Source of the DNA: Anaerolineae bacterium
GTDB taxonomy: Bacteria > Chloroflexota > Anaerolineae > JAAEKA01
Length of the DNA stretch: 64,000 nucleotides
Reading direction: 5' to 3'
NCBI GenBank assembly: GCA_049294015.1
Contig: JBAQCH010000024.1
Coordinates: forward strand, 62,226-126,225
This document shows positions 1 through 15,700 of this stretch, in pieces; the first letter of the stretch is position 1, and the number at the start of each line of letters is the position of its first letter. The position numbers were made by a program, and so were the translations under genes. Under the pieces are notes generated by a model. It had not been told where the DNA came from and made no database searches. It worked only from the letters and a program-made list of their open reading frames with translations.

Positions 1-2070
1 ATGGGCCTGATCTTCCTGCGCCACGCCTACAGCCGCTACCTGGGGGTCAGAGATGCGATCGTGGCCGGCCTGCCCAGCCGCGGCGGCGTGGCCCGCCCGC
101 TGACCAAGGAGGACTTCTCGCAGCGCAGCGCGATCTTCCTGCGGCCCGAGGCCCAGTTCGACCACCTGGTGGCGCTGACCGACCGCGACGACCGGGCCCG
201 GGCCATCATCGCCGCGATGGAGTCCATCGAGGCCGACTACGAGAACCTGCGCGGCGTGCTGCCCAAGAGCGAGTACCAGGAGCTGGACAACCAGGTGCTG
301 GGCCAACTGCTGCGCACCCTCAATCCCGACGAGCTGAAGCGGGTTTCCGGCGACGTCTTCGGCCGCATCTACGAGTACTTCCTGACCCAGTTTGCCGACC
401 AGAAGGCCCACGACGGCGGCGAGTTCTTCACCCCTGTCTCTCTGGTCTCGCTGATCGCCAACGTGCTGGCGCCGCAGGGCGGGCGAGTGCTGGACCCGGC
501 CTGCGGCAGCGGCGGCATGTTCGTGCAGAGCGCCCGCTTCGTGGAGCGCCAGCACGGCAACCCGGTGGAGAAGCTGACCTTCTACGGCCTGGAGAAGAAC
601 AGCACCACCATCCGCCTGGCCAAGATGAACCTGGCCGTGCATGGGCTGGAGGGGGACATCCAGCAGGCCATTACCTACTACGAGGACCCGCACGAGCTGC
701 TGGGCAAGGCCGATTTCGTCATGGCCAATCCCCCCTTCAACGTGGACGAGATCGACGCCGACAAGGTCAAGCGCGACCCGCGCCTGCCCTTTGGCCTGCC
801 GGGCGCCAACAAGAAGGGCAAGGTCTCCAACGGCAACTACATCTGGATCAGCTATTTCTACAGCTACCTGAACCAGCGGGGCCGGGCCGGCTTCGTCATG
901 TCCAGCCAGGCCTCCAGTGCGGGGCGGGACGAGGCCAGGGTGCGCCAGAAGCTGGTGGAGACGGGCGACGTGGACGTGATGATCGCGGTGCGCCCTAACT
1001 TCTTCTACACCCGCACCGTGCCCTGCGAGCTCTGGTTCCTCAACCGGGCCAAGTCGGCCGTGCCCTCATCCCCGGCCCTTCTCCCAGGGGGAGAAGGGAG
1101 TGTGGGCGGCGGCGCGCCGCTGAACCACAAGGGGTGCGTGCTGATGATCGACGCGCGCGCCATCTACCGCAAGGTGACGCGCAAGATCTACGACTTCAGC
1201 CCGGAGCAGGAGCAGAACCTGCTGGCGGTGGTCTGGCTGTACCGCGGGCAAAGCGATAAATACCTGGCGTTGGTGGCCAGCTACTGCCGGCGCACCCTGG
1301 ACGAGGCCGCGGCCTGTTTCCGCATGGCGGGCGAGAACGGCCAGCCGGTCGAGCCGCTGCCAGCCTTCGACGCCAGCCTGGCCGGCCTGCGGGCGGCGAT
1401 GCAACCCTTCCTGCACAGCCGAGCCGCTGATGGCCCGCAGGCCGGGCCGCAGCAGGAGCTGGCCGCCGCCGCGGCCCTCTTCCGCGCCGACGTGGACGCG
1501 TTCCGCGCCGCGCTGGCCGAACAGCAGGCGCTCTGGCAGGGCCAACAGACCAGCAACGGCGCGCTGCAAGCCGCCGTGGACAGGCTGGCGCCATTGGCCG
1601 AGATGAGCCGCGACCTGGTGCGGCAGAGTGACCTGCTGGTCAAGCTGGCCGCCCGGCTGATCGAAACGTGCGAGAAGGAATGCGAGGCCGGCGAGAGCGA
1701 CCTGTGGCCAAACCGGGAGATCAACCGGCTGCGCAGAGCCGCCGACGAGGCCCGTCAGGCCGCGGTGGAGCAACTCAAGCAGGTGCGCACCATCTGGCGG
1801 CAGGCCCACTGGCTGGTCGAGCGCTTCCCCGACGCCGAGCTGCGCGACGTGCCGGGGCTGGTCAAGCTGGTGGACGTGCAGGAGATCGCGGCCAACGACT
1901 GGAGCCTGACCCCCGGCCGCTACGTGGGCGTGGCCCCGGCCGAGGAGGACGAGGACTTCGACTTCGAGGAGGCGTTGCGCGAGATCCACGTGGAGCTGGA
2001 GGACCTGAACGCCGAGGCGGTGGAACTGGCGGCTACTATCCAGCGCAATTTCAAGGAGCTGGGAGTATGA
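1..2070 (+). CDS. hsdM: Type I restriction-modification DNA methyltransferase subunit HsdM; 5' end probably lies upstream of the window
   Basis: Translation contains HsdM N-domain-like LIFLRHAYSRYLG, AdoMet motif LDPACGSGGMF, catalytic NPPF (MANPPFNV) and a long helical C-terminal region. Conserved HsdM_N sequence sits at residue 1, so the true start is likely outside the window. Stop overlaps the next start as ATGA at 2067-2070. Confidence 0.9.
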   Translation: MGLIFLRHAYSRYLGVRDAIVAGLPSRGGVARPLTKEDFSQRSAIFLRPEAQFDHLVALTDRDDRARAIIAAMESIEADYENLRGVLPKSEYQELDNQVLGQLLRTLNPDELKRVSGDVFGRIYEYFLTQFADQKAHDGGEFFTPVSLVSLIANVLAPQGGRVLDPACGSGGMFVQSARFVERQHGNPVEKLTFYGLEKNSTTIRLAKMNLAVHGLEGDIQQAITYYEDPHELLGKADFVMANPPFNVDEIDADKVKRDPRLPFGLPGANKKGKVSNGNYIWISYFYSYLNQRGRAGFVMSSQASSAGRDEARVRQKLVETGDVDVMIAVRPNFFYTRTVPCELWFLNRAKSAVPSSPALLPGGEGSVGGGAPLNHKGCVLMIDARAIYRKVTRKIYDFSPEQEQNLLAVVWLYRGQSDKYLALVASYCRRTLDEAAACFRMAGENGQPVEPLPAFDASLAGLRAAMQPFLHSRAADGPQAGPQQELAAAAALFRADVDAFRAALAEQQALWQGQQTSNGALQAAVDRLAPLAEMSRDLVRQSDLLVKLAARLIETCEKECEAGESDLWPNREINRLRRAADEARQAAVEQLKQVRTIWRQAHWLVERFPDAELRDVPGLVKLVDVQEIAANDWSLTPGRYVGVAPAEEDEDFDFEEALREIHVELEDLNAEAVELAATIQRNFKELGV
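1063..1100 (+). repeat. ~38-bp palindromic element CCCTCATCCCCGGCCCTTCTCCC-AG-GGGGAGAAGGGAG inserted in-frame in hsdM (RPE-like)
   Basis: Perfect inverted repeat CCTTCTCCC/GGGAGAAGG. A near-identical copy (38/39) in opposite orientation lies inside hsdR at 13819-13857. Adds about 13 aa (SSPALLPGGEGSV) in-frame. Confidence 0.7.
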
Positions 2071-3092
2071 GCACCACAGAGTTATCCGTTCCAGATGATT
2101 ATGCAGTTCTGCTGGTCAAGGTCAAAGAACGGGTGCTTACTGCACAACTGCAGGCGTTCAGAGCGGTCAATACGGAGTTGATCGGCCTTTACTGGGATAT
2201 TGGGCGCATGATTGTGGAGAAGCAGGCTGGTGAGACTTGGGGCAAATCGGTCGTCCAACAACTGGCGGGGGATTTGCAGAATGAGTTCCCTGGCATCCGC
2301 GGTTTTTCCGCCTCCAATCTCTGGCGCATGAAGTCATTTTTTGAGACCTATGCAGCCTCGGAAAGACTCGCACAGCTTGTGCGAGAAATTGGCTGGGGCC
2401 ATAACTTGGTGATTCTAGCGCGCTGCAAAGATCCACTAGAGCGAGAATTCTACCTGCGCATGACCCGCAAGTTCGGCTGGTCGAGAAACGTGCTGGTCCA
2501 TCAGATTGAGAACCAGAGCTACGAGAAGACATTGCTTGGCCAGACCAACTTCGACAAAACGCTGTCGCCCGAACTGAGGGTGCAGGCAAGGCTAGCCGTC
2601 CGCGACGAGTACATCTTTGACTTTCTGGAACTGGACGAGCAGCACTCTGAGCGGGAGTTAGAACGAGCGCTGATTGGACGTATCGAGGAGTTTCTGCGCG
2701 CTTTGGGCGGAGTATTTGCTTTTGTGGGCAGCCAGTTCCGTCTGGAAGTTGACGATGAGGAGTTCTTCATTGATCTCCTGCTATACCATCGACGCCTGCG
2801 GGCGTTGGTGGCCATCGACCTCAAGATCGGCAAGTTCCAGCCGGAGTTCGTGGGCAAGATGCAGTTCTACTTAACGGCGCTGGACCGGCAGGTGCGCATG
2901 GAAGGCGAAAACCCCTCCATTGGTATCATTCTGTGCAAGGAAAAGAAGCGTACTATCGTCGAGTACGCCCTGTACGACGCCAGCAAGCCCATCGGCGTCG
3001 CCACCTATCGGGTTGTGCGCCAGTTGCCCAAAGACCTGCGCGGCCAGCTTCCCAGCCCGGAGGAGATCGCCAGACTCTTGGAGGAAGAGTGA
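2067..3092 (+). CDS. DUF1016/YhcG-family PD-(D/E)XK nuclease-like protein, inserted between hsdM and hsdS
   Basis: 341-aa product MSTTELSVPDDYAVLLVKVKERV...; N-terminal YhcG-like helical region and C-terminal nuclease-like core (EFFIDLLLYHRRLRALVAIDLKIGKF). ATG overlaps the hsdM stop (ATGA). Visibly lower GC than hsdM. Confidence 0.7.
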   Translation: MSTTELSVPDDYAVLLVKVKERVLTAQLQAFRAVNTELIGLYWDIGRMIVEKQAGETWGKSVVQQLAGDLQNEFPGIRGFSASNLWRMKSFFETYAASERLAQLVREIGWGHNLVILARCKDPLEREFYLRMTRKFGWSRNVLVHQIENQSYEKTLLGQTNFDKTLSPELRVQARLAVRDEYIFDFLELDEQHSERELERALIGRIEEFLRALGGVFAFVGSQFRLEVDDEEFFIDLLLYHRRLRALVAIDLKIGKFQPEFVGKMQFYLTALDRQVRMEGENPSIGIILCKEKKRTIVEYALYDASKPIGVATYRVVRQLPKDLRGQLPSPEEIARLLEEE

Positions 3093-3179
3093 TGGAGCAC
3101 CAAGGTGGAAGGGCAACAGGCACCAGACGGGCGCCTGGCGATGTTCCGGTATTCGGGCTTGGGCCTTCAGACATCTGCT

Positions 3180-3241
3180 GCACCGACGCGGTGGCGCTGG
3201 CCGCGACGATCAAGCGGAACTTCGAGGAGTTGGGGATATGA
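3180..3241 (+). pseudogene. Diverged duplicate of the hsdM 3' end (..DAVALAATIKRNFEELGI*), remnant at the cassette boundary
   Basis: Encodes AATIKRNFEELGI*, compared with the hsdM end AATIQRNFKELGV*; about 75% nt identity to 2017-2070. Its TGA overlaps the hsdS ATG (ATGA at 3238-3241). Confidence 0.6.
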
Positions 3242-4359
3242 GTTGGCAGCAGGCTCGACTCGCCGATATATCATCGATGAGAACGGGAAAGCTCGACTCA
3301 AATGCGGCCATTCCCGAGGGAGCGTATCCCTTTTTCACTTGCGCCCAGGAGACCTTGAGAATAGATGAACCTGCCTTTGACACAGAGGCGGTTCTACTGG
3401 GAGGAAACAACGCGGCAGGGATATTTCCCCTGAAGTACTACAACGGCCAGTTCAACGCTTACCAACGGACCTATGTGATCGAATCACTTGCACCAGATGT
3501 TCTGAATATCCGATATCTTTACTACGCTTTGCGTCCGGCTCTCGCACATTTTCAGTCTGCTTCTATCGGGGCCGCTACTCAGTATCTTACGAAGGGTATA
3601 CTGGACAATTTTCAAGTACCATTGCCCCCAGTTACTATTCAGAATCGCATCGTTATAATCCTCTCCGCCTACGACGACCTGATCGAGAACAACCGGCGGC
3701 GCATCCGCTTACTGGAGGAGGCGGCGCGGCTGCTCTACCGCGAGTGGTTCGTCCACCTGCGCTTCCCCGGTCACGAGCACGTGGCGGTGGTGGATGGCGT
3801 GCCAGAGGGGTGGGAGAGGAAGCGCCTAATCGAGGTTGCAGACATCAGGATGGGGCAAAGCCCGAAGTCCATCTACTACAATCAAGATGGTAACGGTCTT
3901 CCTTTTCATCAGGGAGTGAGCAACTTTGGCGGGAGATTCCCATCGCACGAAGTCTTCTGTACCATTTTAAGTCGGCTTGCAGAACCGGGCGACATTCTCT
4001 TTAGTGTACGGGCACCTGTTGGCAGGATCAACATTACACGCGACAAAATCGTGATTGGGCGCGGTTTGGCTGCAATTCGCTCCAACTGCGATCAGCAGAA
4101 TTTCCTTTTCTACGCATTGAAGAGCCATTTCTTCAAGGATGACATGATGGGCACTGGCGCGATTTTTGCCGCAATCACGAAGAATGACCTTCACGGCGTC
4201 CAACTGATGCATCCTCCGCTTCGACTCATCGAGATGTTTACGGAACATGCGCAACCGATTGATAGACAGATCGAGAATCTTCAACAGACAATCGATGGTC
4301 TTGTGAAAGCCCGCGACTTGCTCTTGCCGCGGTTGATGAATGGAGAGATCAGCGTATGA
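3238..4359 (+). CDS. hsdS: Type I RM specificity subunit HsdS (two low-GC target-recognition domains around a conserved central region)
   Basis: MSWQQARLADISS... start. Central conserved HsdS repeat region IVIILSAYDDLIENNRRRIRLLEEAARLLYREWFVHLRFPGHE and C-terminal conserved LVKARDLLLPRLMNGEISV. TRD segments are visibly AT-richer than the conserved core. Confidence 0.85.
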   Translation: MSWQQARLADISSMRTGKLDSNAAIPEGAYPFFTCAQETLRIDEPAFDTEAVLLGGNNAAGIFPLKYYNGQFNAYQRTYVIESLAPDVLNIRYLYYALRPALAHFQSASIGAATQYLTKGILDNFQVPLPPVTIQNRIVIILSAYDDLIENNRRRIRLLEEAARLLYREWFVHLRFPGHEHVAVVDGVPEGWERKRLIEVADIRMGQSPKSIYYNQDGNGLPFHQGVSNFGGRFPSHEVFCTILSRLAEPGDILFSVRAPVGRINITRDKIVIGRGLAAIRSNCDQQNFLFYALKSHFFKDDMMGTGAIFAAITKNDLHGVQLMHPPLRLIEMFTEHAQPIDRQIENLQQTIDGLVKARDLLLPRLMNGEISV

Positions 4360-7300
4360 ACTCTCCAAGAAGACAGCTCAGCAATTCGTTCTCAACTGGC
4401 GGTGGCGGCGGCCATTTCGAAGCACATCTACAGGCATCCTTTGTTGTTCTGATGCTTACCGGTGGACATGCACCTTGCCTGCCCTGTTGGCCAATCGTCA
4501 AGATCAAGCTGCAAGGAAGGATCGAAGGATTTGACACTGACGACCTGATCGTATTTGTTGAGAATGGCGATACTGGAGAAACACGGAAGCTCTTGGGACA
4601 GGTCAAGCATTCAGTTAGCATCACACAAAGCGACACCGTCTTTGGAGAAGTGATCCAGGCTGCTTGGAATGATTTCAACAATCCAACGGTCTTCACCCGC
4701 GGCAAGGATGTGATTGCGCTGATTACTGGTCCATTGAGCGCAACTGATACGCATAATGTGCAGTGGATATTGGGCCAAGCACGACACACAAGCGGAGTTG
4801 ACGAGTTCTACAGAAACGTCGAGCAAGCGAATTTTAGTCCGCCCAAGAGTGAGGAAAAGCTGGCAGCAATCCAGCATCACCTAAGGACCGCCAACAATGG
4901 CACCGCCGTTTCGCGAGAGGTTCTCTATGATTTCCTGAACCACTTCCATCTGTTAAGCTACGACTTAGGGACCGAGCATGGTGTTGTCTTGTCGTTGCTT
5001 CATTCACCTATCTCGCAGCGTAACCGAAATGCCCCGCAAATGCTTTGGTCGCGGGCTGTGGACATCGTACAAACCTGGAATCAAGATGCTGGAACGATCA
5101 CTCGGGAACGGCTTCCCGAGGATCTGGTGGACGCGTTTGAGCCTACCATCATAGCCCATATTCCCGAAGAGTTGACAACCAAAGATCTCGAAACTCAGAA
5201 AACTGACTGGGATCGGCATCAATACGCCTCCGATTTGGCTCTCGCAAATCTTGTTGGTGCATGGGATGAGAAAAGCGCCGCAGATATTGAAGCCTTGACC
5301 GGAGTAATTGGGATAGAGTATGCAACGTGGGTCAAGGAAGCACGAGAGATCTTACACCTTCCCGGTAGTCCTCTGTCACTCAAAAACGGCGAGTGGAAGG
5401 TTACTGAGCGGGCTGAACTGTGGTCTTCTCTGGGTTCGCGCGTTTTCGATCAACATCTTGACTCCTTCAAGGCTGCAGCTATTGCCGTGTTGAGGGAACG
5501 CGACCCGGCTTTTGATCTTTCACCTGAAGATCGCTTTGTGGCGAGTCTCCGAGGAAAAGCTCCCCATCACAGTTCAGTGCTCAGAATGGGCCTGGCTAAT
5601 GGATTAGCGATTCTGGGCAATCATGCGGGCGCATTAGCCAACTGTTCACGCGGAAAAGCAGAGGCCACCGTAATCTTGGCGATTCGGGAGATTTTCACTG
5701 ACGCTGATTGGAAGCTCTGGGCAAGCCTGAATAACCTTTTACCTGTCATGGCCGAAGCCGCACCCAATGAATTTCTCGATGCTGTGGAGAATGCTCTGCA
5801 GCAGTCACCTTGTCCCTTTGATGAACTCTTCGCTCAGGAAGAGAGTGGCATTATGGGGAGGAACTACCTGACCGGACTACTCTGGGCATTGGAAGGACTA
5901 GCATGGGATGAGCATTACCTTGTCAGAGTTTGTGTTATACTGGGGGAACTTGCCAGTCATGATCCTGGCGGCAACTGGACAAATCGCCCAATCAACTCTC
6001 TGATAACAATCCTTCTTCCATGGTATCCGCAGACTCTTGCACCAATCGAGAAGCGCCAAGTTGCAGTCAGGACGCTCTGCAAAGAGTCGCCAGGTATCGG
6101 TTGGAACTTGATCATTCAGTTGCTGCCTAATCAGCACCGGACATCCTCAGGTTCACATAGACCTTCATGGCGCAAGATAATTCCAGAAGACTGGGAAAGT
6201 GGTGTCTCAGGCCAAGAGTACTGGCAACAGGTGTTCTTCTATGCGGAGCTTGCTGTCTCGATGGCAGACTATGATGCTGCTAGACTCGCCGAACTCATCG
6301 AACACCTTGATAAGCTGCCAAGTTCAGCACTCGATCAACTTCTAGGGGTTCTGTCTTCGGACGCAATCTCAGGTCTTCCCGAAGAACAGCGGCTTCTGCT
6401 TTGGGATCAACTTACGAAGTGCATCATCAGACACAGGCGCTATTCCGAAGCAAAATGGGCATTTGACGACGATCGCATTTCTCAGATCGAGGCAGTGGCC
6501 AACGCCGTGGCACCAGAGAATCCTTTGATTCGATATCAGCCACTTTTTTCCGCTAATGACTTTGACCTCTACGAAGGACGAGATGATTGGCGGCAACAGC
6601 AAGAAAGACTGAACGAGCGGCGTCTGCATGCTATAGAGGAAATACTCAGAACCGGCGGAGTCGATGCAGTCATCGAACTTGCGAAATCGGTCATCTCCCC
6701 AATCCAGGTCGGATACATACTCGGAAGCATCGCTGATTCGATCATTGACTCTGAACTGCTTCCTAAGTATCTGGACTCGGAAACCAGTCAGATCATATCA
6801 TTCATCCGCGGCTATGTTTCAAGCCGGTTCACAGTGAATGGATGGCCTTGGGTGGATGGTCTGGATAGATCGACATGGAGCCTTGAACAGAATGCGATAT
6901 TCCTGAGTTGCTTGTCGTTCTCAAAGGACACTTGGGATCGAGCCGATCAATGGTTGGGTGAAGAACAAGGGGAGTATTGGTCGAGAACTAGTGCAGTTCC
7001 ATATGGAACTGACGAGGATTTGCATGCTGCCGTTGAGAAGTTGATCGACTACGGCAGACCTCAGGCTGCAATTCGCTGTTTGGACAGCATGCGTCATGAC
7101 AACCGACCGCTTGATGTCACGCAATGTATTCGAGTGCTACTAACCACCGTGTCTTCATCTGAACCTGTGGACTCGATGGCCAGGTATCATATTGTCGAGC
7201 TCATCAAATACCTTCAGAACAACTCTGAAGTGCCCTCGGATGATATCGCCAACATAGAATTGATATATCTTCCCCTACTGGATCATGACCAGGGAGTAGC

Positions 7301-7904
7301 GCCCAAACTGTTGGAGCTGCGTCTGGCCACCGATCCTTTATTCTTTTGTGAAGTACTGCAACTCATCTATCGTTCACGGAATGAGGGTGCACCTCGAACT
7401 GAGCCAACCGAGTTATCAAGGGCGATTGCGTCACACGGCTGGCAATTACTTCATCACTGGCAAACGGTGCCTGGAATACAAGAGGATGGTAGTTTCGATG
7501 AAGACCGATTTTCGGCTTGGCTTCGTCGCGTACAAGAGATTTGCACTGATTCGGGCCATATAGACGTTGCGCTCAGCACCATCGGCGAGGTTTTGATATA
7601 CTCTCCTGCCGATGCAACTGGTTTATGGATAAATCGTACGGTAGCGGAGGCGCTAAACGCGCGCGATGCAGAAGATATGCGAACTGGCTTTCGCATGGGA
7701 GTACTCAACTCTAGGGGTGTTCACTTGGTTGATCCCACTGGACAACCGGAACGAGAATTGGCGGAACAGTTCCGTCAGAAAGCAGACGATGTTGAAAACG
7801 TCGGTTTTCAGCGTTTCGCGGTCACGCTTAGGGATCTTGCCGAGAGATACGATCGCGAAGCCGAGCAAATAATCGCCGACCATCGTCAGGAAGCCGCTGA
7901 ATGA
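4356..7904 (+). CDS. Large uncharacterised protein (1182 aa), lower GC, mostly predicted helical; possible N-terminal PD-(D/E)XK-like nuclease motifs. Candidate novel defence component.
   Basis: Long uninterrupted ORF; start ATG overlaps the hsdS stop (ATGA). No Walker A, DEAD or HNH motif seen. N-terminal 90 aa contain HFEAHL ... FDTDDLIVFVENGDTGETRKLLGQVK, a possible E / D / (Q)xK arrangement. Remainder is Leu/Ala-rich with Trp/Asp periodicity, suggestive of alpha-solenoid repeats. Confidence 0.7.
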   Translation: MNSPRRQLSNSFSTGGGGGHFEAHLQASFVVLMLTGGHAPCLPCWPIVKIKLQGRIEGFDTDDLIVFVENGDTGETRKLLGQVKHSVSITQSDTVFGEVIQAAWNDFNNPTVFTRGKDVIALITGPLSATDTHNVQWILGQARHTSGVDEFYRNVEQANFSPPKSEEKLAAIQHHLRTANNGTAVSREVLYDFLNHFHLLSYDLGTEHGVVLSLLHSPISQRNRNAPQMLWSRAVDIVQTWNQDAGTITRERLPEDLVDAFEPTIIAHIPEELTTKDLETQKTDWDRHQYASDLALANLVGAWDEKSAADIEALTGVIGIEYATWVKEAREILHLPGSPLSLKNGEWKVTERAELWSSLGSRVFDQHLDSFKAAAIAVLRERDPAFDLSPEDRFVASLRGKAPHHSSVLRMGLANGLAILGNHAGALANCSRGKAEATVILAIREIFTDADWKLWASLNNLLPVMAEAAPNEFLDAVENALQQSPCPFDELFAQEESGIMGRNYLTGLLWALEGLAWDEHYLVRVCVILGELASHDPGGNWTNRPINSLITILLPWYPQTLAPIEKRQVAVRTLCKESPGIGWNLIIQLLPNQHRTSSGSHRPSWRKIIPEDWESGVSGQEYWQQVFFYAELAVSMADYDAARLAELIEHLDKLPSSALDQLLGVLSSDAISGLPEEQRLLLWDQLTKCIIRHRRYSEAKWAFDDDRISQIEAVANAVAPENPLIRYQPLFSANDFDLYEGRDDWRQQQERLNERRLHAIEEILRTGGVDAVIELAKSVISPIQVGYILGSIADSIIDSELLPKYLDSETSQIISFIRGYVSSRFTVNGWPWVDGLDRSTWSLEQNAIFLSCLSFSKDTWDRADQWLGEEQGEYWSRTSAVPYGTDEDLHAAVEKLIDYGRPQAAIRCLDSMRHDNRPLDVTQCIRVLLTTVSSSEPVDSMARYHIVELIKYLQNNSEVPSDDIANIELIYLPLLDHDQGVAPKLLELRLATDPLFFCEVLQLIYRSRNEGAPRTEPTELSRAIASHGWQLLHHWQTVPGIQEDGSFDEDRFSAWLRRVQEICTDSGHIDVALSTIGEVLIYSPADATGLWINRTVAEALNARDAEDMRTGFRMGVLNSRGVHLVDPTGQPERELAEQFRQKADDVENVGFQRFAVTLRDLAERYDREAEQIIADHRQEAAE

Positions 7905-8191
7905 CCCATAACTGCGACACCGAAGGCACCCTCGTCCAACAGACCACCACCGAGCATCTGCATCAGCACCTCGGATGGCGGGCGGTCTATGCCTACAACC
8001 GCGAGGACTTCGGAGCGGGCGGTCTGCTGGGGCGGGCATCGGACCAGGAGGTGGTACTGACGCGGCCGTTGCGTGCCAAGCTTGTCGAGCCGAACCATGA
8101 CTTGGCCGACGCGGCCTGCCAAGACCCTGCATTACGACTCAACAATGCCAAATACGGGCTTGAAACGATGAATGGAGAGATCAGCGCATGA
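7901..8191 (+). pseudogene. Remnant fusion of the hsdR 5' end (about 190 nt, ~80% identical to 12340-12530) and the hsdS 3' end (ETMNGEISA*); recombination scar between cargo 1 and cargo 2
   Basis: Encodes TEGTLVQQTTTEHLHQHLGWRAVYAYNREDFGAGGLLGRASDQEVVLTRPLRA (hsdR N-terminus is TEDTLVQQTTADYLEQQLGWRSVYAYNREDFGPDSLLGRASDREVVLTRPLRA) and ends with ..MNGEISA* (hsdS ends ..MNGEISV*). The 24-nt atgaatggagagatcagcg(t/c)atga is shared by 4336-4359 and 8167-8190. Confidence 0.6.
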
Positions 8192-10293
8192 AAGCCACCG
8201 AAGCCAACTTGCTGGATTTCCTTAAGAAGTCACCTCAGTTTGTAATCCCGATCTACCAACGCACGTATAGCTGGACCGAGCGCGAATGCCGCCAGCTTTG
8301 GGATGACATCCTGCGCACCGGCAGCAACGACGCCATCGCCGCCCATTTTGTCGGTTCTATCGTCTACATCGAGAAGGGTCTATATCAGGTCACAAGCCAG
8401 TCGCCGCTGTTGGTGATCGACGGCCAGCAACGACTGACGACCGTCATGTTGATCCTGGAAGTGCTGGCGCGCCACGTGGGAAACAGCGAGCCGGTCGATG
8501 GTTTCTCGGCCAGGAAACTCCGCAGCTACTACCTGCTTAACCCGCTGGAGGACGGTGAACGGCACTTCAAGCTGCTGCTTACGCAGACTGATAAGCAAAG
8601 TCTCCTGGCGATGGTGCAGCAGAAGCCTCAGCCCGTCGAGCCGTCGCTGCGCATCGCGGACAACTTCGCCTTCTTCGAAGAGCAGATCAAGGCCCTCGGG
8701 AAGAACCTGACACCGCTGTGCAAAGGGTTGGCAAAGCTCGTGATCGTCGACATCTCACTGAGCCGGGATCAGGACAACCCGCAGCTCATATTTGAGAGTA
8801 TGAACTCGACTGGCCGTGAGTTGAGCCAGGCCGACCTGATTCGCAATTTCATTTTGATGGGGCTGGAGCCAGCCCAACAGACGCAGCTTTACGAAGATCA
8901 CTGGCGGCCGATGGAGGTTGACTTCGGCCAGGAGGCCTACGGCACCCAGTTCGACAGCTTCATGCGTCATTACCTGACTTTGAAGACTGGCGATATCCCC
9001 AATGTCCGTGCCGTTTACGAGGCGTTCAAGTCTCACGCCCGCTCTCCAGAAGTTGTGGCAGCAGGCATCGAGGCCTTGGTTGAAGACATCCATCGCTATG
9101 CTGGCTACTATTGTGCGATGGCTTTGGACAAGGAATCCAGCAAGGAGTTGGCAGAAGCCTTCCGGGATCTGCGCGAGATGAAGGTCGATGTGGCGTATCC
9201 ATTCCTTCTGGAACTGTACCACGACTTTGCCGAGGGGGTGTTGCCTGAAGCCGATTTCCTCCAGGCCGTGCGGTTGGTGGAGGCTTACGTGTTCCGCCGG
9301 GCCGTGTGCGCAATTCCTACCAACTCTCTCAACAAGACCTTCGCCACGTTCAGACGCGCCCTCAAGAAAGAGCGCTACATTGAGAGTATCCAGGCGCATT
9401 TCCTCACATTGCCGTCCTATCGCCGTTTCCCCAACGATGAGGAGTTCAAGCGCGAGTTGTCCATTCGTGATCTCTACAATTTTCCCCGTCGTAGCTATTG
9501 GCTGCGACGCCTGGAGAATTTTGACCGGAAGGAGCGAGTGTCGGTGGGTGAATACACCATCGAACACATTCTTCCCCAGAACGAGAACCTTTCCGTCGCA
9601 TGGCGTCAGTCGCTCGGTCCAGAGTGGCGACGTATACAAGAAACCTGGCTGCACACACTGGGGAATCTCACATTGACGGGCTACAATGCCGAGTACAGCG
9701 ATCGACCGTTCCAGGAAAAACGAGATATGCCGGGCGGGTTCAAAGAGAGCCCACTGCGGCTCAATCAAGGACTTGGTGCACTGGACGCGTGGAACGAAGC
9801 TGCCATTCAGGCACGGGCGAAGCATCTTGCCGAAAAGGCCGTCAAGGTATGGGCAGCGCCCGCCCTATCGGACGCCGTGCTCGAGACCTACCAGTCAAAG
9901 GCCGAAAAGTCTGTTGGCTATAGCATCTCCGACCATCCACATGTGGCTGAAGGCGGGACCATGCAGGCCCTGTTTGAGCAACTCCGCAAGGAGATCCTGG
10001 CGCTGGACCCTTGCGTTTCCGAGGAGATTCTCAAGCTCTACATCGCCTACAAAGCTGAGACCAACTTCGTGGACATCGTGCCACAGAAGAGTCGCCTCCG
10101 CCTCTCTCTCAACATGCACTTTCACGAGTTGAACGACCCCAGGGAGATGGCCAAAGATGTGACCAATCTGGGCCGCTGGGGAAATGGCGACGTGGAGGTC
10201 GGCCTGAATCAACCGGAGGACATACCCTATGTCATGGGTTTGTTGCGTCAGGCCTTTGAGAAACAGATGGGCAACGGGATAGAGACGGAATGA
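8188..10293 (+). CDS. GmrSD-family fused DUF262 (ParB/Srx-like NTPase) plus DUF1524 (His-Me/HNH-like nuclease) protein; likely type IV modification-dependent restriction enzyme or BrxU/SspE-like effector
   Basis: N-terminal DUF262 hallmarks IPIYQRTYSWTERECRQLWDD and VIDGQQRLTT. C-terminal DUF1524-like region with EYTIEHILPQN. ATG overlaps the upstream remnant stop (ATGA). Confidence 0.85.
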   Translation: MKATEANLLDFLKKSPQFVIPIYQRTYSWTERECRQLWDDILRTGSNDAIAAHFVGSIVYIEKGLYQVTSQSPLLVIDGQQRLTTVMLILEVLARHVGNSEPVDGFSARKLRSYYLLNPLEDGERHFKLLLTQTDKQSLLAMVQQKPQPVEPSLRIADNFAFFEEQIKALGKNLTPLCKGLAKLVIVDISLSRDQDNPQLIFESMNSTGRELSQADLIRNFILMGLEPAQQTQLYEDHWRPMEVDFGQEAYGTQFDSFMRHYLTLKTGDIPNVRAVYEAFKSHARSPEVVAAGIEALVEDIHRYAGYYCAMALDKESSKELAEAFRDLREMKVDVAYPFLLELYHDFAEGVLPEADFLQAVRLVEAYVFRRAVCAIPTNSLNKTFATFRRALKKERYIESIQAHFLTLPSYRRFPNDEEFKRELSIRDLYNFPRRSYWLRRLENFDRKERVSVGEYTIEHILPQNENLSVAWRQSLGPEWRRIQETWLHTLGNLTLTGYNAEYSDRPFQEKRDMPGGFKESPLRLNQGLGALDAWNEAAIQARAKHLAEKAVKVWAAPALSDAVLETYQSKAEKSVGYSISDHPHVAEGGTMQALFEQLRKEILALDPCVSEEILKLYIAYKAETNFVDIVPQKSRLRLSLNMHFHELNDPREMAKDVTNLGRWGNGDVEVGLNQPEDIPYVMGLLRQAFEKQMGNGIETE

Positions 10294-10391
10294 GTTTCAC
10301 CGAAGACACCCTCGTCCAACAGACCACCGCCGACTACCTCGAACAGCAGCTCGGCTGGCGCTCGGTCTACGCCTGTAACGATGGAGAATAA
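10290..10391 (+). pseudogene. Near-identical duplicate of the hsdR 5' end (about 85 nt, ~97% identical to 12343-12428) ending in a degenerate junction (..VYACNDGE*)
   Basis: ttcaccgaagacaccctcgtccaacagaccaccgccgactacct.gaacagcagctcggctggcgctcggtctacgcct is shared with the hsdR start. ATG overlaps the GmrSD stop (ATGA at 10290-10293). Confidence 0.6.
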
Positions 10392-12033
10392 CAGCATGAG
10401 CATTGAAGGTCAGGATTGGGACCGCAAGTCGCTACGCTTCGTCGAAGGACGTTCCGCCAACTGGGACGAAGTCGCCAAAGACTGTGTGGCCTTTGCCAAT
10501 GCGCAGGGCGGCGGGTTGTTGATCGGTATCGAGGATGATGCATGGGCGCCGCCGGCGGGTCAGCGTATTGCGGACGAACTGATCGAACGTGTGCGCCGCC
10601 GGATCGGCGAGCTGACTGTGAATGTCACCTGCGCGGTGCAGCGAGAATTGTCCGCTGAAACCGGCGGCGAATTTCTGCGGGTGACTGTTTCTCGCTCTCA
10701 TGCCCCTGCATCTACCACCGATGGCCGCTACTACTTTCGCATTGCGGACGAGTCCAAACCCCTCGTGGGCGAACAAGTTCAACGCCTGCTCAACGAGCGC
10801 AACGCTCAGCCCTGGGAGACGCTGACGACTCTCAGCGTGCCGCGCGGCCAGACGGATCCGGCCAAGCTTGCGGCGTTCACTGCGGCTATTCGGGCATCCA
10901 GCCGGGTCAAGGCGTCGGTCAAGGAGAAGGGCGACGCGGAATTGCTGGATCACTACTACCTGGCCATCGATCGCCACCTGACCAACCTGGGCATTCTCTG
11001 TGTCGGACGCAGGCAGGATCGTGTTCAACTGGGCGCAGCGCCGGTGATTCAGTTCATCAAGTACGATCAGGATGATCGCAAGGTCAGCAAACTCTCCTGG
11101 GATGATCACTCTCTGACGCCGATGGAACTGGTGGAGGCAGTGTGGCGGGAGGTTCCGGATTTCCGCGAGACCTATGAACTGCCGGACGGCCTGTTTCGAC
11201 AATACCTGCCGGCCTATGACCAGCGGGTGGTACGGGAACTACTCGTCAACGCGTTGGTGCATCGACCATACACCCAACGGGGCGACATCTATCTGAATCT
11301 TTACCCGGATCGATTGCAGGTCGTCAATCCAGGATTACTACCTTTGGGTGTCACTCCTCAGACCATCCTGCACCAATCGGTGCGGCGAAACGATGAGATG
11401 GCGCGCGTGTTTCACGATCTGGGGCTGATGGAGCGTGAGGGCAGCGGGTATGATCTGCTTTACGAGGTCTTGACTTCGCAGGGACGAAAGCTGCCAGAAG
11501 TTCGTGAGGGAAGTGATCGGGTCGAAGTGGTCGTTTACCGGCGCGTAATCAAGCCCGTGGTGATTGATTTCCTGTCCAAGGCGGACGCTGCGTACCACCT
11601 AACGCAACGTGAACGAATAGCGCTGGGAATTCTGGTTCAATACGATGCTCTGACGATGCGAGAGCTAGCCAATCTCCTGGAGTTGCAGGACACATCGTCT
11701 GTGAATTTCTGGATCGAGAGGCTTCTGGAATGGAGAATTGTTAAGCAGGTTGGAAAAACAAGCGGGACCCGCTATTTTGTCGATCCCGATCTACTGGACA
11801 GGATGAACTTTCCAAGTAAGACAACCCTTGCTCGTATTGAGACTCATCGACTCCGTGCCCTGATTTTGGAGGATTTGCGAAGACATCCAGGTTCTTCCAC
11901 AAGTAAGATGCGTGAGCGCATTGGAGATGAGATCCCTATGCAACAAATTCGCAGGCAGCTCGCCATTCTGACAAAGGAAGGCCTAGTAGTGTTTCGAGGA
12001 GATAAACGCTGGCGTCGGTACTGGCCGACATGA
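10381..12033 (+). CDS. Schlafen-like AlbA_2 (divergent AAA) domain protein with HATPase_c_4-like middle region and C-terminal winged-helix; ATP-binding putative DNA-binding regulator or defence protein
   Basis: N-terminal AlbA_2 signature E..K.LRFVE...W.EVAKDCVAFANAQGGGLLIGIEDD. Middle RELLVNALVHRPY...GDIYLNLYPDRLQVVNPG matches the HATPase_c_4/RecG-C-like motif. C-terminal region is wHTH-like. 3' third is AT-richer. Confidence 0.75.
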   Translation: MENNSMSIEGQDWDRKSLRFVEGRSANWDEVAKDCVAFANAQGGGLLIGIEDDAWAPPAGQRIADELIERVRRRIGELTVNVTCAVQRELSAETGGEFLRVTVSRSHAPASTTDGRYYFRIADESKPLVGEQVQRLLNERNAQPWETLTTLSVPRGQTDPAKLAAFTAAIRASSRVKASVKEKGDAELLDHYYLAIDRHLTNLGILCVGRRQDRVQLGAAPVIQFIKYDQDDRKVSKLSWDDHSLTPMELVEAVWREVPDFRETYELPDGLFRQYLPAYDQRVVRELLVNALVHRPYTQRGDIYLNLYPDRLQVVNPGLLPLGVTPQTILHQSVRRNDEMARVFHDLGLMEREGSGYDLLYEVLTSQGRKLPEVREGSDRVEVVVYRRVIKPVVIDFLSKADAAYHLTQRERIALGILVQYDALTMRELANLLELQDTSSVNFWIERLLEWRIVKQVGKTSGTRYFVDPDLLDRMNFPSKTTLARIETHRLRALILEDLRRHPGSSTSKMRERIGDEIPMQQIRRQLAILTKEGLVVFRGDKRWRRYWPT

Positions 12034-12333
12034 TGTTCTATCGAACAAAAAGCACTGAATTCAATGCAAAAATGCTAACACTGTTACTTAAATGAGATTG
12101 TTGACTTCCGTAGCGCGATACATTGCTGATGCATTGCTTGTTTCGATTTCTATATATTGTATTCAATAAGTTATCTGATACTATATGTAGTGATTGTCAA
12201 AGACAAGTAAAGCCTAGAATCCCGATTCTCGCTGAAAATTCTATCTAACAAATCCTGTTGAGTTTTCGTGAATTGTCAATTAGCTGTTCGTTAGGCAGAC
12301 GTTTACAAGTGCGCAACATATGAGAAATGACCG
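12034..12333 (+). promoter_or_regulatory. 300-bp strongly AT-rich intergenic island directly upstream of hsdR; candidate promoter region (for example TTGTAT-16-TACTAT at 12157-12184) and probable 3' edge of the last inserted cassette
   Basis: AT-rich sequence (for example ctatatattgtattcaataagttatctgatactatatgtagtgattgtcaaag) contrasts with the GC-rich flanks. The promoter hexamers are a weak call because the AT richness produces many matches. Confidence 0.35.
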
Positions 12334-15300
12334 ATGAAGGCTGATCGATTCACCGAAGACACCCTCGTCCAACAGACCACCGCCGACTACCTGGAACAGC
12401 AGCTCGGCTGGCGCTCGGTCTACGCCTACAACCGCGAGGACTTCGGGCCGGACAGCCTGCTGGGCCGGGCGTCGGACCGGGAGGTGGTGCTGACGCGGCC
12501 GCTGCGCGCCGCGCTGGCCGCGCTCAACCCGGACCTGCCCGCCGCGGCCTACGACGACGCCGTGCGCCAGCTCGTCAGCGTGACAGCCACCCAGTCGCTG
12601 CTGGCAACGAACCGCGAGAAGTATACCCTGATCCGCGATGGCGTGCCGGTCAGTTTCCGCAACGCCAGGGGCGAGCTGGAGCGGCGCCGGCTGCGGGTGA
12701 TCGACTTCGCCGACCCGGCCGCCAACGACTTCCTCTGCGTGCGCGAGCTGTGGGTGCGGGGCGACCTCTACCGGCGGCGGGCCGACATCGTGGGCTTCGT
12801 CAACGGCCTGCCCCTGCTCTTCATGGAGCTGAAGAACGTCAGCCGGGACATCCGCGCCGCCTACGAACGCAACTTCAAGGACTACCTGGATACCGTGCCC
12901 CACCTGTTCCACCACAACGCGGTGGTGGTGCTGGCCAACGGCGTGGACGCCAAGCTCGGCTCGCTGACCAGTCGCTTCGAGCACTTCCACGAGTGGAAGC
13001 GGCTGGACGAGGACGAGCCGGGCGTGGTGGACATGGAAACCCTGCTCAAGGGCATCTGCCAGCCGGCCAACTTCCTGGACCTGGTGGAGAACTTCATCCT
13101 CTTCGACGACTCGGCCGGCGAGCCGAGGAAGATACTGGCCCGCAACCACCAGTTCCTGGGCGTCAACCGCGCCATCCGGGCTGTGGAGGAGCGCCGCCAG
13201 CGCCAGGGCAAGCTGGGCGTCTTCTGGCACACCCAAGGCGCGGGCAAGAGCTACTCCATGGTCTTCTTCACGCGCAAGGTGCATCGCAAGCTGGGCGGCA
13301 ACTTTACCTTCCTGGTGCTCACCGACCGGGAGGACCTGGACACGCAGATCTACAAAACCTTTGCCGGCTGCGGCGTGGTGGACAACGACCGCGATCCCTG
13401 CCGGGCGGCCGGCGGCCAGCATCTGAACCAACTGCTGACCCTGCACAAGGCGTACATCTTCTCGCTGATCCAGAAGTTCAACCGCGACGTGGAGCCGGAT
13501 CAGCCCTACAGCGAGCGGGAGGACATCATTGTCATCAGCGACGAGGCCCACCGCAGCCAGTACGGCAGCCTGGCGCTGAACCTGCGCAACGCGCTGCCCA
13601 ACGCCAGCTCGATCGGCTTCACCGGCACGCCCCTCTTCAAGAATGACGAGATCACCCGCCGCGTCTTCGGCGACTACGTTTCCACCTACGACTTCCAGCG
13701 CGCGGTGGCGGACAAGGCCACTGTGCCCCTTTACTACGACGCGCGCGGCGACAAGCTGGGCGTGGTTACCGACGACCTGAACGAGCGCATCGCCGAGAAG
13801 CTGGAGGAGATGGAAAACTCCCTTCTCCCCACGGGAGAAGGGCCGGGGATGAGGGGATTCGACATCGACGTCGCCCAGCGGCTGGAGCGCGAGCTGGAGC
13901 GGGACTATCACGTCATCACCGCCGGTAAGCGGCTGGATCAGATCGCCCAGGACTTCGTCGAGCACTATTCAACCTCTTGGGAGACCGGCAAGGCGATGCT
14001 GGTCTGCATCGACAAGGTGACCTGCGTGCGCATGCACAAGCTGGTCGGGTTCTACTGGGATCAGCGCATCAAGGCGCTGGAGCGAGCAGCGCCCGCGGCG
14101 ACCGACGAGCAGGACGAGCAATATCGCCGTCGCCAGATCGAATGGATGCGCGCGACCCGCATGGCTGTGGTGATCAGCGAGGAGCAGGGCGAGGTGGCTA
14201 GATTCCAGCAGTGGGGATTGGACATCACGCCCCATCGCCGCCTCCTCAAGGAGGGCATGGACCTGCCGGAGGCCATGCGCCAGCAGCCCCAGTACCGCGC
14301 CATGCAGCGCCTGGCCCTGGACGATGCCTTCAAGGCCGAGCAGCACCCCTTCCGCATCGCCATCGTCTGCGCCATGTGGCTGACCGGCTTCGACGTGCCC
14401 AGCCTGGCGACGCTCTACCTGGACAAGCCACTCAAGGCCCACACCCTGATGCAGGCCATCGCGCGCGCCAACCGGGTCAACGAGGGCAAGAACAACGGCC
14501 TCCTCGTGGACTACTGCGGCATCCTCAAGAACCTGCGCCAGGCCCTGGCCACCTTTGCCGGCGCAGGGGATGGCGGCCGCGACGGCGACGGCGGCGAGAT
14601 CGACCCGGCCCGCCCTGAGCAGGAGCTGCTGGCCGATCTGGCTGAGGCCGTCGCGCTGGTGCAGGCGTTTTTGGCCGAACGGGGAGCGTCGCTGGATGCC
14701 ATCATCAGCCAGGCAGGCTTCGCCCGCAACGCGGCCATCCTGGCGGCCAAGGAAGCGGCCAACCAGAACGACGCGACGCGCAAGCGCTTCGAGGTCATGT
14801 GCCGGGCGGTGTTCAGCAAGTTCAAGGCTTGTCTGACCCTGGCCGGCGTCAACGCCCACCGGCGCGACAAGAGCGCCATCGACATCGTCTACCAGAGCCT
14901 GCAAGCCGACCGCGCGCAGGCCGACATCAGCGCCATCACGCAGGAATTGCACGAGATCGTCGACCAGGCCATCGCGGTGTGGCGCAGCCCGACAGCCGCT
15001 GACCGGGCGCCGTACGACATCAGCCAGATCGATTTCGAGCGCCTGCGACGGGAGTTCGAACGCAGCCCCGCCCAACGCACCACTGTGCAGAATCTCAAGA
15101 CTGCCATCGAGCGCCGCCTCCAGCGCCTGCTGGCGCAGAACCCCCTGCGAGCTGACTTGCAGCGGCGCTACGAGGAGATCGTGGCCGACTACAACCGCGA
15201 GAAGGACCGCCTGACCATCGAGCAGACCTTTGAGGAATTGCTGCGCTTCGTGCAAGCCATGGACGAGGAGGAGACGCGCGCCGCACGCGAGGGATTGACC

Positions 15301-15627
15301 GAGGAAACGCTAGCCGTGTTCGACCTGCTCAAGAAGCCTGAGCTGGCGCCGCAGGAGATCGAGCGCATTAAGAGGGTGGCGGGCGACTTGCTGGCGACGC
15401 TCAAGGCCGACAAGCTGCGCGTCGAGCAGTGGCAGGACAAGGAGGCCACGCGCGACGCCGTGCGCCAGGCCATCCTCGATTTCCTGTGGAACGACAGCAC
15501 CGGCCTGCCGGTCGGCCGCTACAGCGAGCGTGATGTGCAGGCGCGCGCCGACGTGGTCTATCAGCACGTCTTCCGGGTCTATCCCAGGCTGCCCTCGCCC
15601 TATTACGAGCTGCGCATGGCCGCGTAA
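12334..15627 (+). CDS. hsdR: Type I restriction enzyme R subunit HsdR (SF2 helicase/nuclease)
   Basis: 1097 aa; Walker A GVFWHTQGAGKSYSMVFF, DEAH box VISDEAHRSQYG, helicase motifs; long helical C-terminus. High GC like hsdM. Confidence 0.9.
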   Translation: MKADRFTEDTLVQQTTADYLEQQLGWRSVYAYNREDFGPDSLLGRASDREVVLTRPLRAALAALNPDLPAAAYDDAVRQLVSVTATQSLLATNREKYTLIRDGVPVSFRNARGELERRRLRVIDFADPAANDFLCVRELWVRGDLYRRRADIVGFVNGLPLLFMELKNVSRDIRAAYERNFKDYLDTVPHLFHHNAVVVLANGVDAKLGSLTSRFEHFHEWKRLDEDEPGVVDMETLLKGICQPANFLDLVENFILFDDSAGEPRKILARNHQFLGVNRAIRAVEERRQRQGKLGVFWHTQGAGKSYSMVFFTRKVHRKLGGNFTFLVLTDREDLDTQIYKTFAGCGVVDNDRDPCRAAGGQHLNQLLTLHKAYIFSLIQKFNRDVEPDQPYSEREDIIVISDEAHRSQYGSLALNLRNALPNASSIGFTGTPLFKNDEITRRVFGDYVSTYDFQRAVADKATVPLYYDARGDKLGVVTDDLNERIAEKLEEMENSLLPTGEGPGMRGFDIDVAQRLERELERDYHVITAGKRLDQIAQDFVEHYSTSWETGKAMLVCIDKVTCVRMHKLVGFYWDQRIKALERAAPAATDEQDEQYRRRQIEWMRATRMAVVISEEQGEVARFQQWGLDITPHRRLLKEGMDLPEAMRQQPQYRAMQRLALDDAFKAEQHPFRIAIVCAMWLTGFDVPSLATLYLDKPLKAHTLMQAIARANRVNEGKNNGLLVDYCGILKNLRQALATFAGAGDGGRDGDGGEIDPARPEQELLADLAEAVALVQAFLAERGASLDAIISQAGFARNAAILAAKEAANQNDATRKRFEVMCRAVFSKFKACLTLAGVNAHRRDKSAIDIVYQSLQADRAQADISAITQELHEIVDQAIAVWRSPTAADRAPYDISQIDFERLRREFERSPAQRTTVQNLKTAIERRLQRLLAQNPLRADLQRRYEEIVADYNREKDRLTIEQTFEELLRFVQAMDEEETRAAREGLTEETLAVFDLLKKPELAPQEIERIKRVAGDLLATLKADKLRVEQWQDKEATRDAVRQAILDFLWNDSTGLPVGRYSERDVQARADVVYQHVFRVYPRLPSPYYELRMAA
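13819..13857 (-). repeat. Second copy of the ~38-bp CCCTCATCCCCGGCCCTTCTCCC..GGGAGAAGGGAG palindromic element, inverted orientation, in-frame inside hsdR
   Basis: The reverse complement of 13819-13857 matches 1063-1100 at 38/39 nt. Encodes SLLPTGEGPGMRG in HsdR. Confidence 0.7.
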
Positions 15628-15630
15628 CAG

Positions 15631-15666
15631 CCGTCCCCAGCATGTGGTCAACGGGGCGTTTTTGGG
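15631..15666 (+). terminator. Weak candidate rho-independent terminator after hsdR (short GC stem plus TTTTT)
   Basis: ccgtcccc-agcatgtggtcaac-ggggcg followed by ttttt right after the TAA stop; the stem is short and imperfect. Confidence 0.3.
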
Positions 15667-15700
15667 TTCTCGCACACAAAGACCGAGAATATACCCTCGC

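Follow-up and report, generated by a model that had tools for sequence, protein, structure and literature searches.

In EcoKI, a restriction-modification (R-M) system of Type I, hsdM and hsdS overlap by 1 nt and have been described as translationally coupled (PMC3510504). At ATGA and TGATG overlaps such termination-reinitiation coupling was reported to be strict, in bacteria as well as in archaea (PMC6728339). Gaps of ~20 nt all but destroy it, and for it to occur a translated open reading frame (ORF) of any kind need only end in the final 15 nt of the native upstream gene (PMC10666635). An accessory gene can be co-transcribed in a Type I system and controlled by it, as is prrC in the EcoprrI Type IC locus (PMC12707154), and the link of YhcG/DUF1016 genes to Type I systems and to mobile-element genes is already in surveys (PMC3424549, PMC9881135, PMC1189080). 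Here we describe a Type I operon in a stretch of 64,000 nt (the window) from an Anaerolineae bacterium (Chloroflexota; JAAEKA01), comprising positions 62,226-126,225 of the forward strand of contig JBAQCH010000024.1 (assembly GCA_049294015.1), in which a DUF1016 gene stands between hsdM and hsdS and a diverged copy of the hsdM tail precedes hsdS. The copy is part of a short ORF, referred to below as a relay, which reaches from the stop of the inserted gene to the start of hsdS. We consider it probable that the duplicated tail is a recombination scar and that relay ORFs of this kind are kept by selection for termination-reinitiation coupling; the regularity appears not to have been described in the literature that was searched, the coverage of which was incomplete.

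The hsdM gene (1-2070, + strand, with its first 36 codons outside the window) encodes the methyltransferase subunit of a long, ~725-aa family, and was recognized by Pfam (N6_Mtase, E 3e-71, plus HsdM_N) and by PADLOC (MTase_I PDLC03035, E 3e-230). Its stop codon lies at 2068-2070, and the full gene encodes 725 aa in an identical contig, L165 (L-numbers are the labels of our comparison loci and contigs). The DUF1016 gene (2067-3092, + strand; 341 aa; Pfam; PADLOC PDC-S02, E 1.7e-150), a putative PD-(D/E)XK nuclease-like gene, begins with an ATG at 2067 that shares an ATGA with the hsdM stop, and it ends with a TGA at 3090-3092; GC falls from ~0.68 to ~0.55 exactly at position 2070. The hsdS gene (3238-4359, + strand) encodes 373 aa with two target recognition domains (TRDs), is a compositional mosaic, and was matched by Methylase_S (Pfam) in two stretches and by Specificity_I (PADLOC, E 5e-85). 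The direct overlap from hsdM to hsdS is broken in the window, with 1171 nt between the two genes, and the hsdM ATGA now starts DUF1016.

The best direct repeat within 1-5000 pairs 2012-2071, the copy that now supplies the 3' end of hsdM (its final 19 codons together with ATGA), with the remnant copy at 3183-3242 (both + strand); 47 of the 60 nt are identical (78%), and the runner-up among ungapped 60-nt matches over the whole window and both strands reached 31/60. A DNA profile built from 93 resident hsdM 3' ends matched 3181-3243 (profile positions 243-305; nhmmer E 1.8e-15), and a hidden Markov model of the tail matched the remnant with E 1.8e-6. At the protein level the copy (DAVALAATIKRNFEELGI) and the resident tail (EAVELAATIQRNFKELGV) are identical in 13 of 18 residues. 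The remnant contains a Shine-Dalgarno-like GAGGAG motif 9 nt upstream of the hsdS ATG, and its stop overlaps that ATG at 3238 (ATGA). An earlier, sequence-only reading of this DNA had reported a DUF1016/YhcG gene whose start overlaps the hsdM stop and, in front of hsdS, a diverged hsdM tail copy with the ATGA restored; both features were confirmed with all their coordinates, and the similarity of 3185-3241 to the hsdM end stands far above the next best match.

What that reading had missed is that the tail fragment belongs to a longer ORF and to a recurrent pattern. The copy makes up the 3' third of relay ORF 1 (3092-3241, + strand; 49 codons), the ATG of which lies on the DUF1016 stop (TGATG) and the frame of which stays open from 3092 to a stop on the hsdS ATG (ATGA). 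It was called as a 49-aa gene by independent gene callers in L165-L170, six metagenomic contigs with an identical DUF1016 protein; the peptide had no match among Pfam families. The stop-start chain is unbroken through hsdM, DUF1016, relay 1 and hsdS, and then through a gene for 1182 aa, a 96-codon ORF and a GmrSD gene, the overlaps being ATGA at 2067, TGATG at 3090-3094 and ATGA at 3238, 4356, 7901, 8188 and 10290.

Other candidate roles for the stretch between DUF1016 and hsdS were rejected. An RNA element was sought in 3093-3237; no Rfam match was found within 1-16000, and the fold of 3085-3265 was not better than shuffles (z +0.84). A consensus scan for an internal promoter or terminator stayed at shuffle level, with none in 3000-3300 except one weak terminator-like site inside hsdS, the scan itself being weak for a Chloroflexota host.

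For recurrence, 80 DUF1016 genomic loci were compared and metagenomes were scanned with the HsdM C-terminus, the HsdM family in question being ~700 aa long. The same long HsdM family was found directly upstream of DUF1016 in ~17 of the 80 loci, nearly all with an HsdM-tail remnant downstream which ends on the hsdS start. In most operons of this family hsdS stands directly on the hsdM stop, and those bearing cargo are a minority. The intervening genes of that minority are DUF1016, a DUF1016 subfamily at 44-45% identity, AlbA_2/HATPase_c_4/Fic-like_C genes (a family that occupies the hsdM-hsdS slot of L106, L107, L117 and L135) and HEPN/nucleotidyltransferase pairs. Cargo of four kinds was found associated with relays, namely DUF1016, the 44-45% subfamily, AlbA_2/HATPase/Fic-like_C and a 23S_rRNA_IVP-like four-helix protein, and tail remnants trail nuclease and non-nuclease cargo alike. 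Arrays also occur: L004 has the order hsdM, DUF1016, tail, four-helix protein, tail, hsdS, and in L046 a decayed DUF1016 is followed by a tail, by a second, intact DUF1016 and by another tail, which is fused to hsdS. Two successive DUF1016 insertions in one slot are seen in L046 and in L045. Remnant length varies from 26 to ~180 nt, the 5' limit of the hsdM-tail remnants lying ~35 to ~180 nt ahead of their stop, and there is no fixed-length target duplication. A single ancient insertion followed by decay was rejected as the origin of these remnants: they share lineage-specific residues with their own resident tails (L004, L043, L052, L044, L045, L064), and the junctions differ by locus.

The relay frame was then compared over all loci with cargo, a remnant and an intact hsdS (n=21; bacteria and archaea). 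All 21 relay ORFs that precede hsdS share three properties: the hsdS ATG stands at a distance of 1 mod 3 from the cargo stop, that stop is overlapped by the relay's start codon (as AATGA, TGATG or TAATG), and the frame is open to the ATGA. All starts are ATG except in L044, where a GTG lies on the stop and two ATGs follow 3 and 6 nt further. The gaps fall into ~16 junction classes of 40-277 nt with unrelated 5' sequences; for at least 13 independent length changes all to be multiples of 3, p is < 1e-6. Indels within remnants measure 3, 9 and 12 nt, and the only two 1-nt insertions (L032, L046) each fuse the relay in frame to hsdS; in these fusions (L032 7023-8138, L046 7029-8330) HsdS carries an N-terminal extension with HsdM tail residues.

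The relay frame persists even in loci whose tail peptide is no longer recognisable (L002, L048, L091, L039, L157) and in those where DUF1016 has been largely deleted into one bridging ORF (100 codons in L046, 232 in L126). It is broken in L064, a negative control in which hsdS is truncated. In four further loci (L035, L057, L135, L161) the cargo stop lies directly on the hsdS start. Pooled over remnants compared with their own tails, the ratio of nonsynonymous to synonymous differences (pN/pS) is 0.40, against a baseline of 0.19 between functional tails; the relay peptide is thus under relaxed constraint, while frame and phase are conserved.

The same data bear on the idea that the relay is a micro-protein, a free HsdM C-terminal helix that would bind the helical region of HsdS and modulate assembly of the methyltransferase or nuclease. 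The HsdM C-terminal helical region has been modelled alongside the HsdS inter-TRD helix (PMC3510504), and in the window copy 13 of 18 residues are retained, most of the changes being synonymous. Against it, the five loci with decayed tail peptides lost the tail sequence and kept the frame, relays 2 and 3 of the window (described below) derive from unrelated fragments, and the peptide matches no family; we regard a peptide function of this sort as very improbable.

As to which of the two window tails is native, GC content at third codon positions (GC3) was compared along the locus. The hsdM gene stands at 0.93-0.94, with 60/60 over the 60 codons that lead up to the repeat; the present hsdM tail has 13/19 (0.68), DUF1016 has 0.70 and the copy before hsdS has 18/19 (0.95). 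A value of 13/19 or lower occurs in only 8 of 651 19-codon windows of the hsdM body. Within relay 1 the first 30 codons have a GC3 of 0.57 and the last 19 codons 0.95. The break on the left lies at ~2012-2025, at a junction in register with hsdM, and at the right junction (3182/3183) non-hsdM sequence is joined to hsdM codon -19. Because the GC3 of the copy before hsdS matches the hsdM body and that of the tail on hsdM matches DUF1016, we lean towards the view that the copy before hsdS is the native one and that the tail on hsdM would have been imported with DUF1016, the sample being 19 codons. The copy before hsdS is 84-88% identical to other family tails (86% to that of L161) and 75% identical to the window's own tail (rank 57/94). 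Between the two window tails the synonymous difference pS is 0.55 and pN/pS is 0.26, with family baselines of 0.60 and 0.19, and by their sequences the two tails are read as having been supplied by two different hsdM genes.

This polarity bears directly on the origin proposed in the sequence-only reading, namely one cassette from one donor that brought DUF1016, the tail fragment and a foreign hsdS together, the fragment being the donor's hsdM end. That the fragment and the resident tail have distinct sources was upheld (75% identity between them as compared with 84-88% to others); the imported piece, however, would be the tail on hsdM, and the fragment before hsdS is not foreign-looking by GC3. 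A single cassette would fit with tails that differ like orthologous functional ones, with a fragment to which other family members come nearer than does the window's own tail, and with DUF1016 and the hsdS TRDs both lying below hsdM in GC. Yet the fragment has the GC3 of the hsdM body and of the central conserved region (CR1) of hsdS, and it is the tail on hsdM that has a DUF1016-like composition. The hsdS gene is itself a mosaic (GC3 0.50 in TRD1, 0.91 in CR1, 0.57 in TRD2), and the shared donor suggested for TRDs and DUF1016 is not supported by these values. Moreover, in L166 the DUF1016 gene, the relay and TRD1 are identical to those of the window and TRD2 is different, which separates DUF1016 from the low-GC TRDs; TRD2 has been exchanged independently of DUF1016 in the same population, and the low-GC TRDs are explained by apparent TRD swapping. 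In the sister lineage L161, the same junction at the DUF1016 3' end (...GAAGAGTGATG) opens a different hsdS directly. A one-cassette, one-donor origin is accordingly improbable.

The population contigs are 99.7% identical to the window through hsdM, DUF1016, relay, TRD1 and CR1, with another TRD2 and no 1182-aa gene (window 3238-4359 compared with L166 2168-3250), and are ~91% identical downstream. The hsdM middle (1051-1800) is very variable, with indels, relative to L161 (52-73% identity, flanks ~91%), and this includes the stretch encoding SAVPSSPALLPGGEGSVGGGAPLNHKG. A recombination breakpoint in hsdM relative to L161 was sought and rejected, as divergence climbs gradually (5-15%, 21%, 29%) with no sharp step. 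PDB relatives of the window HsdM found by sequence search are Type I M subunits, and the C-terminal ~330 residues of the long HsdM family have no counterpart in solved ones.

Two further relays were found in the same operon. Relay ORF 2 (7901-8191, + strand; 96 codons, with ATGA at both ends) lies between the 1182-aa gene (4356-7904, + strand; ATGA overlaps with hsdS and with relay 2) and the GmrSD-family Type IV restriction gene (8188-10293, + strand; Pfam GmrSD_N, GmrSD_C, DUF5655). It consists of an hsdR head that runs in frame into the ~8 codons with which hsdS ends: over residues 7-80 it shares 68% identity with the same residues of the resident HsdR (E 1e-32), and the last 26 nt (8166-8191) repeat the hsdS 3' end (4334-4359) at 25/26. 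The empty site of relay 2 is present in L166; the 1182-aa gene is absent in L166, L169 and L170, and hsdS overlaps GmrSD directly there. Relay ORF 3 (10290-10391, + strand; 33 codons) starts with an ATGA on the GmrSD stop, runs 11 nt beyond the start of the next gene or stops 4 nt short of it, and is an hsdR head copy in which 81 of 84 nt are identical to hsdR 12351-12434; the arrangement also occurs in L166 (5349-5465), where it was called as a 38-aa gene. With an hsdR head plus an hsdS tail in relay 2 and an hsdR head in relay 3, the relays are chimeras of the head of the gene that followed the cargo in its previous context and the end of the displaced core gene.

The gene after relay 3 is an AlbA_2/HATPase_c_4/helix-turn-helix gene (10381-12033, + strand; Pfam), and it is followed by hsdR (12334-15627, + strand; HSDR_N, E 9e-36; SWI2_SNF2, E 8e-69; T1RH-like_C; NCBIfam TIGR00348, E 7e-138), with a GC3 of 0.91. 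Between them lies a 300-nt AT-rich non-coding stretch (12034-12333) in an otherwise GC-rich operon, which may carry the hsdR promoter and may have arrived with the inserted gene. Between the window and L166 the two hsdR head copies show cross-similarity (98.7% and 93.8%), a sign that the copies may have exchanged sequence. The 1182-aa protein had no Pfam, NCBIfam or PADLOC match. Its homologues (60-67% identical, ~1180 aa) occur in Gammaproteobacteria, Planctomycetes, Syntrophus and Desulfosporosinus, mostly alone beside defence-type genes (Wadjet-like JetC/JetD, AAA_15/RloB, BrnT/BrnA, HEPN/nucleotidyltransferase), and the gene may be an uncharacterised single-gene defence system.

Taken together, the scar would have formed as follows. 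The accessory DUF1016 gene would have entered a recurrent slot, the stop-start overlap of hsdM and hsdS, when a ~1.17-kb segment (~2012-3182, carrying a donor hsdM tail, DUF1016 and ~30 codons of the donor's next sequence) entered the native hsdM ~19 codons before its stop. One end would have joined by tail homology and the other by an illegitimate in-frame junction, possibly through homology-facilitated illegitimate recombination or through a circularised fragment that a single crossover took in; with circular DNA, crossovers of this kind are reported to create duplications of 109-950 bp (PMC3240628). The displaced native tail would have remained before hsdS because it carries the Shine-Dalgarno motif of hsdS and the ATGA overlap, and, together with the 30 leftover codons, it would make up the 49-codon relay from the DUF1016 stop to the hsdS start. 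Ribosomes leaving DUF1016 would translate the relay and reinitiate at hsdS. Selection would then act on the unbroken translated chain, that is on frame, phase and overlaps, and not on the peptide, and the same logic would have given the two other relay ORFs of the operon. A relay that ends in the native upstream gene end after translated sequence is the configuration reported to suffice for coupling, and from this and from the phase kept in all 21 relays we infer coupling as the selected property.

Several observations weigh against this account. The hsdS gene keeps its own GAGGAG, so de novo initiation may suffice for it. L007 and L158, both with intact hsdS, are not chain-coupled, and in L004 a 100-nt gap follows the relay that stands after DUF1016. 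The loci are not fully independent, and several junction classes may share descent. With regard to polarity, the remnant, and not the resident tail, has the lower GC3 in most loci elsewhere, and compositional polarity was rejected as a general rule, being true in the window and failing in most other loci. No donor was found, either via TRD1 relatives or in five loci with the 1182-aa gene; the donor order predicted from relay 2 (1182-aa gene, then hsdR) was absent in those five homologous loci, where the gene stands alone. The relatives of hsdS TRD1 (best 78% identical) occur in operons with and without DUF1016 (L171-L173) and were uninformative on polarity. A fragment of an earlier hsdS as the source of the 30 codons at the relay 5' end was likewise set aside: RAPGDVPVFG has its best match in RKSGPIPVFG of the L161 hsdS N-terminus, a weak resemblance with p 0.017 as a single comparison and 0.22 over 65 hsdS genes, and is retained as a lead only.

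Part of these observations would fit a neutral scar: a recent rearrangement would have left the tail copy and the small ORF behind without any selected function, and hsdS would rely on a ribosome-binding site of its own. The GAGGAG motif 9 nt upstream of the hsdS ATG, the raised pN/pS of the remnants and the two loci outside the chain all point that way. A neutral leftover is nevertheless hard to reconcile with 21 of 21 relays in phase over ~16 length classes, with indels that are only multiples of 3 or frame-fusing, with frames kept in decayed remnants and decayed cargo, and with a frame broken only where hsdS is a pseudogene (L064). We therefore hold neutrality to be unlikely, and selection for coupling remains the explanation that we prefer.

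A different route into the slot would be dedicated mobility, with DUF1016 acting as a homing-type enzyme on the hsdM 3' end, or with the tail as an attachment-site-like handle for cassettes excised as circles. DUF1016 relatives at 70-81% identity are found across almost every bacterial phylum plus methanogenic archaea, insertions in one slot are repeated (L046, L045), and circular-DNA crossovers are reported to leave duplications (PMC3240628). Outside R-M contexts DUF1016 sometimes lies within direct repeats (55 nt in L067, between two ABC transporter genes; 30 nt in L069; 133 nt in L018; ~1 kb in L065), and 20 of 75 loci have flanking repeats above the 99% null. The 13-kb locus L036 (Methanoculleus formosensis) contains no hsdM; a 175-codon ORF of unrelated sequence closes there with a copy of the hsdM tail, DEVVRLAATIKKNFEELGV*, which overlaps the DUF1016 start (5477-6408). 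On the other hand, most DUF1016 loci are without a flanking repeat, the same scars stand beside non-nuclease cargo (AlbA_2, four-helix) and at the hsdS tail and hsdR head, and the 5' limits of remnants vary from 26 to ~180 nt and are not fixed. No integrase, transposase or recombinase ORF was found in 1-16000, and no terminal inverted repeats bound 2067-3241. Dedicated mobility is in our judgement a doubtful explanation, slightly more so than neutrality.

A broader and speculative extension of the preferred account, which we put forward with little confidence, is that stop-start junctions serve as a recombinase-free cassette slot, with gene ends (hsdM tail, hsdS tail, hsdR head) as homology handles for capture, stacking (L004, L046, the window) and pop-out; relays would make capture expression-neutral, and defence islands would be assembled in an integron-like manner. 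A hint of the same kind of scar outside the long-HsdM family comes from L003, of another Type I family, in which DUF1016 comes after hsdS and 21 nt of the hsdS 3' end are repeated (5970-5990 and 7036-7056) directly past the DUF1016 stop.

Annotation usually passes over short ORFs and gene-end fragments in defence operons or labels them pseudogenes; here, with three inside 10 kb, they make up a regular device that appears to be selected. If the account is true, translational coupling would limit the growth of defence islands, since no accessory gene could settle in a coupled operon unless ribosomes were again led on to the core gene behind it. The scars would record the donor's next gene and the recipient's displaced end, so that the order of acquisition would be reconstructable, and the account would supply a simple guide to placing genes in coupled operons with subunit stoichiometry left undisturbed.

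The window DUF1016 protein carries DUF1016_N (PF17761; E 6.1e-47, residues 19-154) and YhcG_C (PF06250; E 1.6e-61, residues 177-329, the whole profile length), and no PDB relative was found by sequence search. Its catalytic columns are intact (an E near 194, D236 in FIDLL, and D251-L-K253 in AIDLK) and are conserved in 83 relatives, position 251 being D or E. The subfamily (L001-L080) is 70-81% identical from Anaerolineae to Methanoculleus, Methanothrix, Ralstonia and Planctomycetes, among others, and its GC follows the host in part only (r 0.77). In L007 the DUF1016 gene has IS200-like genes on both sides.

Compared with known systems, the DUF1016 wedge is an ordinary member of a described association and adds nothing new to it: with the YhcG/DUF1016 genes of Type I loci (PF06250/PF17761; PDC-S02, a PADLOC defence candidate) it shares both domains, the PD-(D/E)XK positions and a genomic setting among hsdM, hsdS and hsdR genes. 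A duplicated hsdM tail and a bridging ORF are both absent from the published reports (PMC3424549, PMC9881135, PMC1189080). With prrC it shares the place of an accessory nuclease-type gene that lies inside a Type I operon in the operon's own orientation, and by position DUF1016 may act in a prrC-like manner, as an accessory effector tied to the R-M complex. PrrC differs in being an anticodon nuclease of another fold at another position in its locus, and the likeness is one of position.

The relays themselves share with termination-reinitiation pairs (EcoKI hsdM-hsdS; Huber et al. 2019, 2023) the ATGA/TGATG overlaps and a native 3' piece placed before the downstream start after translated sequence, and differ in that the upstream partner is a chimeric leftover ORF and not a real gene. 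The 1-nt insertions of L032 and L046 are a natural counterpart of the engineered EcoKI HsdM-HsdS fusion from which the frameshift had been removed (PMC3510504), although they join only the last 20-30 HsdM residues and not the whole subunit. With the effector-immunity arrays of type VI secretion systems and with Rhs loci (PMC5361080), the operon shares a conserved flank that anchors the module, a resident end that is displaced downstream and kept, and successive arrays (L004, L046, the three window scars); those scars of homology-facilitated illegitimate recombination hold displaced 3' ends and orphan immunity genes with a function of their own, whereas here the displaced pieces are 26-180 nt long and lie in frame within bridging ORFs.

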